Source: Dehalococcoidia bacterium | GTDB taxonomy: Bacteria; Chloroflexota; Dehalococcoidia; UBA2979 | Direction: 5' to 3' | Assembly (NCBI GenBank): GCA_965219085.1 | Contig: OZ244720.1 | Span: 2,816,001 to 2,880,000 of the forward strand | DNA length: 64,000 bases | Shown: positions 31,695 to 35,965 of the stretch, piece after piece | Layout: each line of letters starts with the position of its first letter | Numbering within the stretch: position 1 is the stretch's first letter | Notes under the pieces: model-generated | The model's database searches: none | Told to the model about the DNA's origin: nothing | What the model saw: only the letters and a program-made list of their open reading frames with translations | Position numbers and translations under genes: made by a program

Positions 31695-32590
31695 GCCCGT
31701 CGCGCCGGCGCGAGGCGGTCTGCATGTTGCAGGACCGTCTCGGGTTGTCGGAACGGCGGGCATGCCGGGTCACCGGCCAGCACCGCTCCACGCAGCGCCG
31801 CCTCCCGGCGCGCGGCCGCGGCGACGAGGCGCTCAGGACGGAGTTACACGCCTTCTCGCGTGGCCACCCCCGCTGGGGGTACCGCCGGGCCTAGGCGACC
31901 TTGCGCGAGGAGGGCTGGGGCGTGAATCGCAAGCGGGTGCAACGGCTCTGGCGTGAGGAGGGGCTGCGCGTCCCGCTGAAGCGGCGCAAGCGTCAGCGCC
32001 TGGGGGACTCGGCGGTACCCGCCGTGCGGCTGCGTGCTGAGCGGCCGAACCACGTCTGGGCGCTGGACTTCCAGTTCGACCAGACCGCGGACGGGCGGGT
32101 CCTGAAGCTGCTCAACATCGTCGACGAGCACACACGGGAGGCGCTGGCGGTGGTGGCCGCCAGGCGCATCAACGCCGACGCCACCGCCGCCACGCTCGAC
32201 CGGATCGTCGCCTGGCGCGGAACGGCGCCGGGGTACATCCGCTGCGACAACGGGCCCGAGCTCACGGCCAACGCCTTGCGCGACTGGTGCCGGTTCAGCG
32301 GCACCGGCAGCAGCTACATCGAGCCTGGCGCGCCGTGGGAGAACCCGTACGTGGAGTCGTTCAACGGCCGGCTGCGCGACGAGTTCCTGGCCGTCGAGCA
32401 GTTCGACAGCCTGCTTGAGGCGCAGGTGCTGCTCGAGGACTGGCGGATCGAGTACAACACGAAGCGCCCGCATAGATGGCATGAGGGCCGGTCCCCTCCT
32501 CACAGCGGATACTCGTCTCCGCCGGGAGCACGGCCTCGATGGGCTAGGTAGCGGCTCGGCAAGGAGCCTGAGAGAGGTAGGAGACCGGCC

Positions 32591-33676
32591 ATGCGGCAGG
32601 ATATCGCAACGATGCGCATCGACGACAGGGATGGGGCCGCCGTCATCGTCGGCCTCGACGTGGGCGATCGTTACACGCACGTCCACGCGCTCGGCGCCGG
32701 CGGAGAGGCGGTGCGCGAACGGCGCGTCCGCACCACGGCGGCGTCGCTGACTACAGCGCTGGCCAGCCTGCCTCCAGCGCGGGTCGTGCTCGAGGCGGGG
32801 CCGCGCTCGCCGTGGCTAAGCCGCCTCGTGGCGGACCTCGGCCACGAGGCGGTCGTCGCCAACCCTCGCCAGGTGGCGCTGATCGCCCGCAGCCAGCGCA
32901 AGACCGACCGGCTCGACGCCGCGTGGCTGGCGCGGCTGGGGCGCTTCGACCCGGAGCTGCTCGCCCCGATCCGCCACAGGAGCGAGCGAAGCCAGCACGA
33001 CCTCGCCGTGGTGCGCGCCCGCGACGCACTGGTGCGCACCAGGACGTTGCTCATCAACCACGTGCGTGGGGCCGTCAAGGCCTGCGGCGCCGCGCTGCCG
33101 TCGTGCACGGCCGAGGCCTTCCACCGCAAGATGGGGGACCACATCCCCGACGGGCTGCGCCCGGCGCTGCTGCCGCTGGTGGAAACGATCGGCGAGCTGA
33201 CCGCGCGCATCGCGGCAGCCGGCCGCGAGGTCGACGCGCTGTGCGAGGCTCACCCCGAGACCGCGGCGCTGCGCCAGGTCACCGGCGTGGGGCCGATCAC
33301 GGCGCTCACGTTCGTGCTGACGATCGAGGACCCCGGCCGCTTCCCGAAGAACCGGGAGGTGGGGGCCTACCTCGGGCTCGTGCCGCAGCAGCGGGAGTCT
33401 GGGGAGCGAGCGCCACAGCTCGGCATCAGCAAGAGCGGCGACGCGGGCCTGCGGCGGCTGCTCGTGCAGGCTGCGCACTACATCCTCGGCCCCTTCGGAC
33501 CCGATACCGACCTGCGCCGCTGGGGTGAGCGCTACGCCGCTACGGGGGCCGGCAACGCGAAGAAGCGCGCCGTCGTGGGCGTCGCGAGGCGGCTGGCGGT
33601 GCTGCTGCTCGCGCTGTGGAAGAGTGGCGAGGTCTACGAACCGCTACGTCACGCCGCAACCCGCGAGGCTGTGTAG
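32591..33676 (+). CDS. IS110-family DEDD recombinase/transposase
   Basis: VGLD, VLEAG, KTDRLDA (DEDD RuvC-like), GVGPITA, YLGLVP..ESG (catalytic Ser region); AGGAG RBS; intact frame. Confidence 0.95.
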   Translation: MRQDIATMRIDDRDGAAVIVGLDVGDRYTHVHALGAGGEAVRERRVRTTAASLTTALASLPPARVVLEAGPRSPWLSRLVADLGHEAVVANPRQVALIARSQRKTDRLDAAWLARLGRFDPELLAPIRHRSERSQHDLAVVRARDALVRTRTLLINHVRGAVKACGAALPSCTAEAFHRKMGDHIPDGLRPALLPLVETIGELTARIAAAGREVDALCEAHPETAALRQVTGVGPITALTFVLTIEDPGRFPKNREVGAYLGLVPQQRESGERAPQLGISKSGDAGLRRLLVQAAHYILGPFGPDTDLRRWGERYAATGAGNAKKRAVVGVARRLAVLLLALWKSGEVYEPLRHAATREAV

Positions 33677-33683
33677 GGGCGAG

Positions 33684-34740
33684 GCAGCGTAGCAGGCGGC
33701 GGGGAGCGGAGAGCAGGAAGGAAGAATCCGAGCGCGAACGAAGCCTTGCACGTGATGCCGAACACGGGCGACTGCGACAGGCTGCTTGTCCCACCGAGGA
33801 CGCCGCATAGCTGGCAGCGCCCCCTGGAAGCAGGATGTGCCTTCATGCACCGGACCCGACGCGCGGTCCATCGAGAGTGCGGATAGAAGCTCGGCACGGG
33901 CTCCGCCACCGGACATCACGAGTAGCTCGGCCCGGACCAGGAGAGGCGTCGTACCCGGAGGAGGCCGCCACGTCGGCCTTGCGGAAAGACCGTCCCTCAT
34001 AGAAGGCAGCGTAGCAGGCGGCGGGGAGCGGAGAGCAGGAAGGAAGAATCCGAGCGCGAACGAAGCCTTGCACGTGATGCCGAACACGGGCGACTGCGAC
34101 AGGCTGCTTGTCCCACCGAGGACGCCGCATAGCTGGCAGCGCCCCCTGGAAGCAGGATGTGCCTTCATGCACCGGACCCGACGCGCGGTCCATCGAGAGT
34201 GCGGATAGAAGCTCGGCACGGGCTCCGCCACCGGACATCACGAGTAGCTCGGCCCGGACCAGGAGAGGCGTCGTACCCGGAGGAGGCCGCCACGTCGGCC
34301 TTGCGGAAAGACCGTCCCTCATAGAAGAAGCTCGGCACGGGCTCCGCCACCGGACATCACGAGTAGCTCGGCCCGGACCAGGAGAGGCGTCGTACCCGGA
34401 GGAGGCCGCCACGTCGGCCTTGCGGAAAGACCGTCCCTCATAGAAGCAGGATGTGCCTTCATGCACCGGACCCGACGCGCGGTCCATCGAGAGTGCGGAT
34501 AGAAGCTCGGCACGGGCTCCGCCACCGGACATCACGAGTAGCTCGGCCCGGACCAGGAGAGGCGTCGTACCCGGAGGAGGCCGCCACGTCGGCCTTGCGG
34601 AAAGACCGTCCCTCATAGAAGAAGCTCGGCACGGGCTCCGCCACCGGACATCACGAGTAGCTCGGCCCGGACCAGGAGAGGCGTCGTACCCGGAGGAGGC
34701 CGCCACGTCGGCCTTGCGGAAAGACCGTCCCTCATAGAAG
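33684..34740 (+). repeat. Tandem nested copies of the IS1111 right end: units of 322, 322, 119, 175 and 119 bp
   Basis: Units 33684-34005, 34006-34327, 34328-34446, 34447-34621 and 34622-34740 all end CCCTCATAGAAG. Confidence 0.95.
33765..33895 (+). ncRNA. Putative bridge RNA/seekRNA core of the IS1111 element (boundaries approximate; identical copy 322 nt downstream)
   Basis: Target guides CAGGCTGCT (33778-86) and CCGCATAG (33803-10) flank a GTCC/GGAC stem; donor-like guides TGCCTTC and ATAGAAG flank GCAC/GTGC and GGACC/GGTCC stems. Confidence 0.8.
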
Positions 34741-35965
34741 CAGCCTGGGCTGGCTCGCCCCGGCTGCCTACGCCGAGCGCTGGGAGACTCAGCTACACGC
34801 TGGACTCTCATAAGCGGTGGACTCGCGAAGGGGGTCCGGTCACCCCGCGTAATCCGCGAGCCACTCAGCGGCGATGAATCCCAATGCATACGTCAGCCAG
34901 AAGTGGCTTCGGTCGAAGTCGTGCACTTCACCGGGAGTTCTGGTGAGTTGTTCGACGGCGAAGCTGGGATTGCGGGCTCTACGCCCGACCTCCAGATCGT
35001 ACACATATTGGGCGTAGTCGGCAGTGCCCTCGCTCATCCAATCGGGACCGAAGTACAACTCGTCCGTTTCCATGGCGAGGACGTTCTGGAGGACGTGAAA
35101 GTACTCGTGTGCTACTGCACTCGCGCTGCAGCCGGGGAACTGGAACTCGATGACATCGTGCGAAACCGTGCAGTAGAACGTGTTGCCGGCGTCGACGTCG
35201 ACCGTGTAGTCGGTGGTGTGTACGCCGAAGCGCATCGCGACCACGTCGGTGGCGCTCTCGAACAGCGCCCGGACCTCGTCGCGCTGCTCAGCCGTGATGT
35301 CGTCGGCGAAGACGAACGTTGGCCGCGCCGTCCCGCGTTCCCACCACCGTGCGTCTCTCGACAGTTCGAGCCGCAGCGCCTGCCCGCGGGCGAGCGTCGT
35401 GAGCCCGACGTCGTCCGCGTCCGCACCGTAGTGCACGTACCGTTGCGTCTCGGCCTCCCACCTCGACGCCTCCACGGGCTCGTCGCCAAAACGGGCGAGG
35501 GCATCCGCGACAGGCGTGCCGTCCGCGCCCGTCCAGCCCATGAGGTTCCACCCGGCGCGGAGGGAGATCACGACGCCCTCGCCGGAGACGAGGCGGGTCC
35601 ACTCGACGGTCGAGTCGCCGTCGAGAAGCAGCCACGGCCCCATCCCCCCGTGAGCGTCGGCAGGTCGCTGTACCGGCGTCGCAGGGCGTGCTGGTAGGCC
35701 TGCTCCTCGGCGTCCCACGCCGAGACCTGCCGCAGCGCCGGGATCGCGTCGAACAGCTCCGAGGTGGAGGTGCTCGGCCCGACCCAGCCGACCATGTTCC
35801 AGCCGGGATACAGCACGGCGGTGATCGTGTCCGCCTCGGATGTTCCCGCCGGGTCGGACGAGGCGACAGCGTGCGCGGGCGCCACTCCGACACCGAGCAC
35901 GAGGAGCGCGAGCGCCGCGAGGAGCGCGCGCCGGAGGTGTGCGGGCGGGAGCGGGCTCGATGCGG

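Follow-up and report, generated by a model that had tools for sequence, protein, structure and literature searches.

A 64,000-nt stretch of DNA from a Dehalococcoidia bacterium (the window; positions are counted from its first base) contains an IS1111-type element whose right end is present five times in head-to-tail order. From the sequence of the junctions, we consider it probable (roughly 0.65) that this array arose as a by-product of the element's own recombinase, which would have joined the right end of the element (the "left donor" half-site) with nearby AG dinucleotides.

The insert extends from 32476 to 34740 (2265 nt) and interrupts the integrase-core gene of an IS3-family element. 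To define its borders, 400 nt of the left flank and 300 nt of the right flank were used as queries, which led to the genome's other IS3 copies. Among the uninterrupted full-length copies, 10 of 10 had a right-flank match starting immediately after the last base of the left-flank match, with one AG where the two meet. Because these 10 empty sites in the same genome have contiguous flanks, the borders of the insert are fixed. Insertion was precise, with no target duplication beyond the shared core dinucleotide, and AG flanks every copy. The features of the insert and its target are as follows.

31901–32475, plus strand: 5′ part of the IS3-family transposase gene orfB, integrase core (Pfam rve, E 3.8e-18; rve_3, E 1.8e-21)
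32474–32475, plus strand: AG of the target, the final two bases of the orfB 5′ part (empty-site comparison)
32476–34005, plus strand: first complete copy of the IS1111-type element, 1530 nt including the terminal AG (10 empty sites)
32481–32493, plus strand: left subterminal inverted repeat, 12 of 13 positions complementary to its partner at 33988–34000 (read by eye)
32591–33676, plus strand: DEDD recombinase/transposase gene, 361 aa (Pfam DEDD_Tnp_IS110, E 1.3e-18; Transposase_20, E 1.8e-20)
34741–34846, plus strand: 3′ remainder of the IS3-family element (right-flank homology to other IS3 copies runs 102–106 nt)

The 361-aa ORF matched PF01548 in its N-terminal part and PF02371 in its C-terminal part, both over the curated cut-offs, and a G-L-x-P-x4-S-G motif is visible in the translation of 32591–33676. 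The non-coding regions comprise 115 nt to the left of the start codon and 329 nt past the stop codon (33677–34005). The subterminal inverted repeats begin 5 nt from either end and were not listed by a repeat search with a 20-nt minimum, and the ends of the element are conserved across all copies. As described in part of Siddiquee et al. 2024 (PMC11187229), the definition of the IS1111 group includes a G-L-x-P-x4-S(T)-G motif in the C-terminal domain. Because the long non-coding region lies downstream and the motif is present, the element at 32476–34005 is, judged by these sequence features, a member of the IS1111 group of the IS110 family. The window's guide variant occurs once in the genome, though 10 uninterrupted IS3-family targets exist (e.g. 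C1:503773/503774).

From this genome and related Dehalococcoidia assemblies we aligned 11 distinct versions of the right non-coding region. The alignment consisted of a strongly conserved scaffold with two short hypervariable segments, and the hypervariable columns were the segments that match the flanks of the insertion sites. The RNAalifold consensus contained 59 pairs, 5 of which had compensatory changes. This analysis led to the following predictions for the right non-coding region.

33746–33925, plus strand: predicted guide (seek/bridge) RNA module (alignment of the 11 regions and RNAalifold consensus)
33746–33759 with 33911–33925, plus strand: predicted outer stem closing two loop modules (RNAalifold)
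33766–33822, plus strand: predicted target-binding loop, with guide segments at about 33779–33787 and about 33805–33813 (RNAalifold and flank matches)
33823–33834, plus strand: predicted linker hairpin (RNAalifold)
33837–33897, plus strand: predicted donor-binding loop, the 3′ side of which repeats the right terminus (RNAalifold)
33961–34005, plus strand: conserved 45-nt right-end block containing a hairpin (33961–33980), the subterminal repeat and the terminus with its AG (near-invariant columns)

In the window's element the 5′ guide segment is complementary to the core and right flank, and the 3′ guide segment repeats the left flank and core. Of the two, the segment complementary to the top strand comes first (5′) and that for the bottom strand second, which is also the order given for IS1111 seekRNAs in part of PMC11187229. 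Thus the domains, the alignment and the predicted fold agree with the preliminary description of this DNA, which had proposed an IS1111-type element with a guide-RNA region at its right end. An Rfam search of 32300–35000 matched no family, the guide RNA being one without an Rfam model. Neither a promoter-like site nor a plus-strand terminator-like site was found in 32300–34900; the seekRNA of IS1111 elements has been reported, in the same partly consulted source (PMC11187229), to be processed from a longer transcript.

Guide segments were also compared by eye with the adjoining right flank in 12 distinct regions. The match was clear in 7, partial in 1 (L041) and poor in 4 (L002 and, in other genomes, L030, L036 and L046). 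L002 (C1:340394–341913) is 99–100% identical to L003 from about nt 300 to the right end, guide included, and differs from it in the first 300 nt. This copy occupies the target of another variant, and its own guide does not fit the site; its mosaic sequence indicates that it is probably a recombinant between copies.

The right-end array occupies 33684–34740 and consists of five head-to-tail pieces of 322, 322, 119, 175 and 119 nt. Its units, and the internal AG dinucleotides after which they begin, are listed below.

33682–33683, plus strand: internal AG of the 322-nt unit, 6 nt past the stop codon and 5′ of the RNA (junction comparison)
33829–33830, plus strand: internal AG of the 175-nt unit, in the linker hairpin between the loops (junction comparison)
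33885–33886, plus strand: internal AG of the 119-nt units, used twice, in the 3′ side of the donor-binding loop (junction comparison)
33684–34005, plus strand: unit 1, 322 nt, a suffix of the element's first copy
34006–34327, plus strand: unit 2, 322 nt, a second complete non-coding region with the full predicted RNA module (exact copy)
34328–34446, plus strand: unit 3, 119 nt, tail only (exact suffix)
34447–34621, plus strand: unit 4, 175 nt, donor-binding loop and tail without the target-binding loop (exact suffix; RNA model)
34622–34740, plus strand: unit 5, 119 nt, tail only, abutting the true right flank (exact suffix; flank contiguity)

The last four units are exact suffixes of the first, each ends at the exact right terminus, and all units are identical in sequence. 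A repeat search and TRF gave the same periods with 99–100% matches. The five tandem right ends, their lengths and their restarts after the internal AGs at 33682–33683, 33885–33886 (twice) and 33829–33830 had been read from the sequence in the preliminary description, and we found the same. The cassette inventory given there, two complete, one with the donor loop only and two tail-only, fits the RNA model. Four successive additions are one reading of the array; another is a nested series of three tandem duplications, of 119, 294 and finally 322 nt, and TRF lists the 294 period. On the minus strand, each 119-nt junction creates a terminator-like hairpin with a T-rich run (34333–34349 and 34627–34643), probably a chance by-product of the junction sequence.

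The junctions bear directly on how the array was formed. A 7-nt microhomology was available 3 nt away from the 119-nt junction, confirming the earlier observation that it had been bypassed. At the 175-nt junction, sequence is shared with the true flank for 4 nt backward and 3 nt forward, so the crossover is ambiguous within 7 nt. The earlier statement that units are joined precisely at the core therefore holds in that a terminus is joined to an AG at all junctions, but the crossover of the 175-nt unit can be placed only within those 7 nt.

We next consider other copies of the element. The genome, a single 3.3-Mb contig, contains 10 further copies with 85–89% identity and several guide variants. 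A scan with the 18-nt terminus, using one genome per species, identified 28 loci, mostly in Dehalococcoidia/Tepidiformaceae assemblies. Outside the window's own genome, an array was present at 1 of the 28 loci carrying the terminus (L041). Together with the window array, designated the first, the arrays number four.

C1:1259816–1261394 (own genome): array 2, with a second right end of 59 nt, the repeated part being at C1:1261275–1261394
C1:891783–893397 (own genome): array 3, with a second right end of 76 nt, the repeated part being at C1:893244–893397
L041 (another Dehalococcoidia genome; terminus scan): array 4, with three termini and units of 59 and 64 nt

The four arrays contain 8 junctions at 7 distinct internal sites. 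Each unit is an exact suffix of its element, the 45-nt right-end block was found in each unit of all arrays, and every internal site is directly preceded by AG. The preliminary description had named junctions unrelated to the core in comparable arrays as evidence against it; this check favoured it, with three further arrays and 4 more junctions, all at AG. Seven of the 8 junctions have a backward microhomology of exactly 2 nt, and one L041 junction has 2+2 nt of shared sequence. AG accounts for 6.0–6.2% of positions in the array-bearing elements; by hand arithmetic, seven AG sites would be expected by chance with a probability of <1e-7. In the other three arrays, the 59–76-nt units lie 3′ of the RNA module and comprise a variable spacer followed by the conserved 45-nt terminal block. 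The earlier claim that the array amplifies the guide-RNA locus consequently applies to the window array but not to the other three, whose units carry no guide part. L003 has a single right end, though it is near-identical to L004 and lies in the same kind of host repeat. As L003 is without the duplication, unlike L004, the arrays are derived.

We also ran TRF on the whole genome, with a period of at least 50, at least 1.9 copies and at least 95% matches. This filter left 9 tandem loci, 3 of which were right ends of this IS family. The 3′ non-coding regions of the family make up about 0.1% of the 3.3-Mb genome (hand arithmetic), and with 3 of 9 loci falling in so small a fraction the right-end tandem duplications are not a matter of chance. 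Two long tandem repeats (55 nt × 5.8 and 177 nt × 4.2) were observed at C1:1855260–1856777, about 0.7–2 kb upstream of the left end of L011. No tandem left ends were found among 13 left-end motifs in the genome or in the 28 loci of the terminus scan. In a metagenome scan with a 16-nt terminus, none of the 80 matches listed (of 98 stretches) had more than one terminus. Many of these were probably chance matches, and the result is weak since short-read assemblies collapse such repeats.

It is very unlikely that the array is an assembly artefact that is absent from the cell. The apparently single-contig assembly derives from an uncultured organism, with 92.69% completeness, and the units are 100% identical, as might be expected of an artefact. 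However, irregular nested units with base-exact biological junctions are unlike mis-assembly or polishing errors, and the flanks of the array are the exact halves of a known empty site. Moreover, two diverged copies elsewhere in the genome follow the same junction rule, as does the array from an independent assembly.

Without the recombinase, the array could have arisen by microhomology-mediated template switching or by slippage during replication, with pausing at the structured, GC-rich right end. All junctions do have at least 2 nt of microhomology, rising to 7 nt at the 175-nt junction, and a conserved hairpin lies 25 nt from the terminus. In addition, six other long tandem duplications in the genome are unrelated to this IS. 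Ordinary rearrangements do affect these elements, since one copy has suffered a deletion with 5-nt microhomology at a non-AG site. This copy, L005 (C1:1333208–1334574), is without the donor loop and right end, and its break joins host sequence about 75 nt past the insertion site. On the other hand, 7 of 7 distinct junctions share one end base, the functional terminus, and the dinucleotide in common is always the core. Longer microhomology was not preferred, as the 7-nt match at −119 was skipped for a 2-nt one, and slippage does not readily explain the strong enrichment at the right ends of this family (3 of 9 loci). Because the crossover is always at the functional terminus and always at the same dinucleotide, with a 7-nt match only 3 nt away bypassed, annealing-driven slippage is disfavoured, and we regard it as quite improbable for the arrays as a whole. 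By their sequence, the 175-nt junction, with 7 nt shared, and the 2+2-nt junction of L041 would be compatible with slippage.

The preliminary description had proposed that the element inserted into target-like sites within itself. According to this explanation, the excised circle is guided by the target-binding loop to pseudo-sites in a resident copy, and the resulting nest is then reduced to tandem right ends by homologous recombination between the long duplicated left parts. To assess target likeness, the 7+7 bases around every AG site were scored against the same element's own target. The −175 and −119 sites of the window ranked 6th of 94 AG sites, and a hand recount of the earlier target-match counts gave the same values (10/15 and 9/15). 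Self-targeting also predicts exactly the observed junction type and accounts for the survival of short right-end repeats while long left repeats collapse, and the −119 AG is a genuine insertion site of another IS110-type element in relatives. Nevertheless, the other five of the seven internal sites were not target-like, ranking 52nd–87th of 91–94 AG sites, and the most target-like AG sites of each element were left unused. Neither nested self-insertion intermediates nor tandem left ends were found when own-genome copies and left-end motifs were inspected. The position of the sites counts against self-targeting as well, in that 7 of 7 lie within the last 322 nt, which holds only 24–31 of the 91–94 AGs, although survivorship could explain this bias. 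Because only 2 of 7 sites resemble the target, guided pseudo-target recognition is not a general explanation; the proposal stands for the likeness of the two window sites and fails for the other five, and we consider self-targeting an unlikely source of the arrays. Self-insertion with collapse would leave the same sequence as sister exchange, the other route offered in the preliminary description.

We also compared the right sides of the internal sites with the left end of the element, as a model of pseudo-left junctions would have it. The likeness was no better than background, and this model was rejected.

The −119 AG is of interest in another respect. A different IS110-type element of 1281 nt, on the opposite strand, lies at L146:2234–3514, and the same insert is present in L147, L148 and L149. 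It contains a 362-aa ORF with PF01548 and PF02371 and has an upstream non-coding region of about 180 nt. The position of the insert is an AG of the donor-loop-coding DNA that corresponds to the window's −119 AG (33885–33886), and the core is present on both sides. G004 has the insert in two different host-element variants, G012 and G015 have it once each, and the window's genome lacks it. From its position and coding content, it looks like an RNA-guided insertion sequence that targets the guide-RNA gene of another. A second kind of insertion was seen in two identical copies of the IS. At L011:3026–3938 (C1:1859037–1859950; identical in L010), an ORF-less group II intron of about 915 nt lies on the minus strand (Rfam group-II-D1D4-4, 95 bits; Intron_gpII, 45 bits). 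The intron is located in the conserved 45-nt right-end block and parts the terminus from the remaining element.

The pattern of terminus plus shared dinucleotide fits a recombinase whose strand exchange would need identity of the core. In the mechanism that we propose, the recombinase complex would recognise the right end (the "left donor" half-site and AG core) at the junction of right end and flank. Rather than engaging the left end, it would exchange strands with a nearby AG that lies 59–322 nt upstream, either in place or on the sister duplex, the sole evident requirement for the partner being the identical 2-nt core. Resolution would duplicate the segment from the internal AG to the terminus, and three or four such rounds, or re-use of composite units, could generate the 322+322+119+175+119 arrangement. 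We infer both the agency of the recombinase and the mode of resolution, which could be in-place or sister exchange or else re-entry of a partial circle. Units of 59–76 nt seem too short for double-stranded circles, which favours sister exchange or in-place resolution over re-entry. The presence of arrays in diverged copies (85–89% identity) and in an independent assembly provides further support for one-sided recombination at the right end. Against it, 5 of the 7 internal sites have no visible half-match to any guide, so recognition of the partner is left unexplained by this mechanism. A nick made by the recombinase and repaired through 2-nt microhomology would look the same. Products of reciprocal deletion were not found, and the truncated relatives L152 and L153 stop at non-AG positions that are followed by unrelated sequence. 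The rarity of arrays in other genomes (1 of 28 loci), the metagenome scan that added none and the non-AG deletion in L005 also count against it.

Duplication of the guide-RNA cassette in the window copy was most likely incidental, because no guide RNA is duplicated in the other three arrays. Selection could nonetheless act on an array of any origin, and maintenance for guide dosage or for spare cassettes would be compatible with one-sided recombination as the source. The window array has two complete predicted RNA modules in one transcription unit, plus-strand terminator-like and promoter-like sites were both not found in 32300–34900, and the reported processing of IS1111 seekRNA from a longer transcript (in the portion of PMC11187229 consulted) would suit such an arrangement. 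In contrast, three of the four arrays are without any RNA part, the copies are identical with no diversification, the variant has remained at one copy despite 10 empty targets in the genome, and the genome contains no orphan cassettes that we could find. We therefore give little credence to a selected guide-RNA array. As to the earlier suggestion of spare cassettes for retargeting, nothing points in that direction, all copies being identical.

A more speculative reading is that right-end arrays are the birthplace of mobile modules consisting of a guide RNA only, which we think doubtful. The cassette between two right termini (units 1 and 2) would re-insert after being copied into a partial circle, or would remain on excision from the inner terminus. 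If this were the case, orphan guide genes could act in trans on co-resident variants, since all variants share their ends and donor loop, and the element family could diversify and exchange targets. The poor guide fit in 4 of the 12 regions could then be a sign of this exchange. Orphan cassettes were not found in the window's own genome, where all 15 matches to the 175-nt unit lie within IS copies. Joining of right ends as a route to altered guide dosage or to orphan guides is thus possible, though unsupported here.

The off-target chemistry of bridge/seek-RNA recombinases matters because these enzymes are under development as genome editors. The footprints described here would be natural, base-exact examples from an IS1111-type lineage, in which the right end joins sites that share little beyond the 2-nt core. 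They support the proposed one-sided (half-match) reactions and extend them past IS621-like elements. Where the guide gene lies downstream in an element, the guide RNA itself can be duplicated or split by such events.

This kind of event is already in print, in preprints of August–September 2026 and, for ISPpu9, in 2025. The studies cited below are mostly on IS110-type elements, whereas the element described here is IS1111-type. In the literature searched we did not find an IS1111-type case in which the units are whole or partial guide-RNA cassettes, an internal partner that always has the core dinucleotide yet at most sites has no flank similarity, or a Chloroflexota lineage with such arrays. 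The supplements of Hu et al. may cover these three points.

The closest relatives in organisation are the seekRNA elements ISEc11, ISKpn4 and ISPa11 (Siddiquee et al. 2024, PMC11187229, consulted in part). Like the window's element, they have a DEDD transposase with the S-G motif, subterminal inverted repeats, a long downstream non-coding region and the same order of guide segments. They differ in that tandem right ends are not described for them (the word "tandem" has 0 occurrences in the text of PMC11187229 available to us), and the element here belongs to a distinct Chloroflexota lineage without an Rfam model. For CazIS110, the consulted part of the preprint 10.1101/2025.10.25.684509 describes tandem cargo repeats as transient by-products, seen in 3 of 96 colonies.

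ISPpu9 and MITEPpu9 of Pseudomonas putida, as presented in part of Pares-Guillen et al. (NAR 2025, PMC12288879), have an AG crossover dinucleotide at both ends. Once the ends were mutated, ectopic AG dinucleotides were used, and alternative end combinations and sub-element circles were reported. A downstream small-RNA module has its own copy of the ends, and ssr9 modules sometimes occur in tandem. The AG crossover and the downstream RNA module that is sometimes in tandem are thus common to both systems. However, the ISPpu9 module is flanked by both end boxes, and Ssr9 is dispensable and is not the guide, whereas the units here consist solely of suffix sequence from the right non-coding region of the element itself and include no copy of the left end.

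According to the sections consulted of Xie et al. (bioRxiv 10.64898/2026.08.31.748434), IS621 recombines substrates that match the core and one arm only, and recognition of the donor arm suffices. Recognition of a single arm would likewise account for the off-target joins described here. IS621 is IS110-type with a CT core and was studied in vitro and in E. coli, whereas the present element is IS1111-type with an AG core and is known from its genomic footprints. Furthermore, most internal partners here are without any matched arm.

The most similar loci are those of Hu et al. (Hu, Xie, Yang and Rubin; bioRxiv 10.64898/2026.08.14.744561), who describe tandem non-coding units beside IS110 transposases (n = 468). 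In the sections consulted, nearly all unit boundaries are LD-only, and similarity at the unmatched boundaries does not exceed chance; these authors speculate that left-donor-initiated reactions resolved in place lead to duplication of the segment. The term IS1111 has 0 occurrences in that paper, and the sections consulted do not mention the core dinucleotide at the internal boundary, although supplements may cover these subjects. Their loci and the window array are alike in having non-coding units in tandem by the transposase gene, with boundaries that keep only the left-donor (right-end) sequence. At the other boundary neither resembles donor sequence; here 5 of 7 sites are without target likeness, ranking 52nd–87th of 91–94 AG sites, the remaining two ranking 6th of 94. 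The window array differs in that the guide RNA lies at the right end, such that the units are whole or partial guide-RNA cassettes, and in that the host is an uncultured Dehalococcoidia bacterium. Among the features of left-donor-anchored expansion that we tested, the right-end sequence and core were kept at 8 of 8 unit boundaries. By this comparison, the window array is a base-exact instance of left-donor-anchored expansion, the right end being the left donor in that nomenclature.
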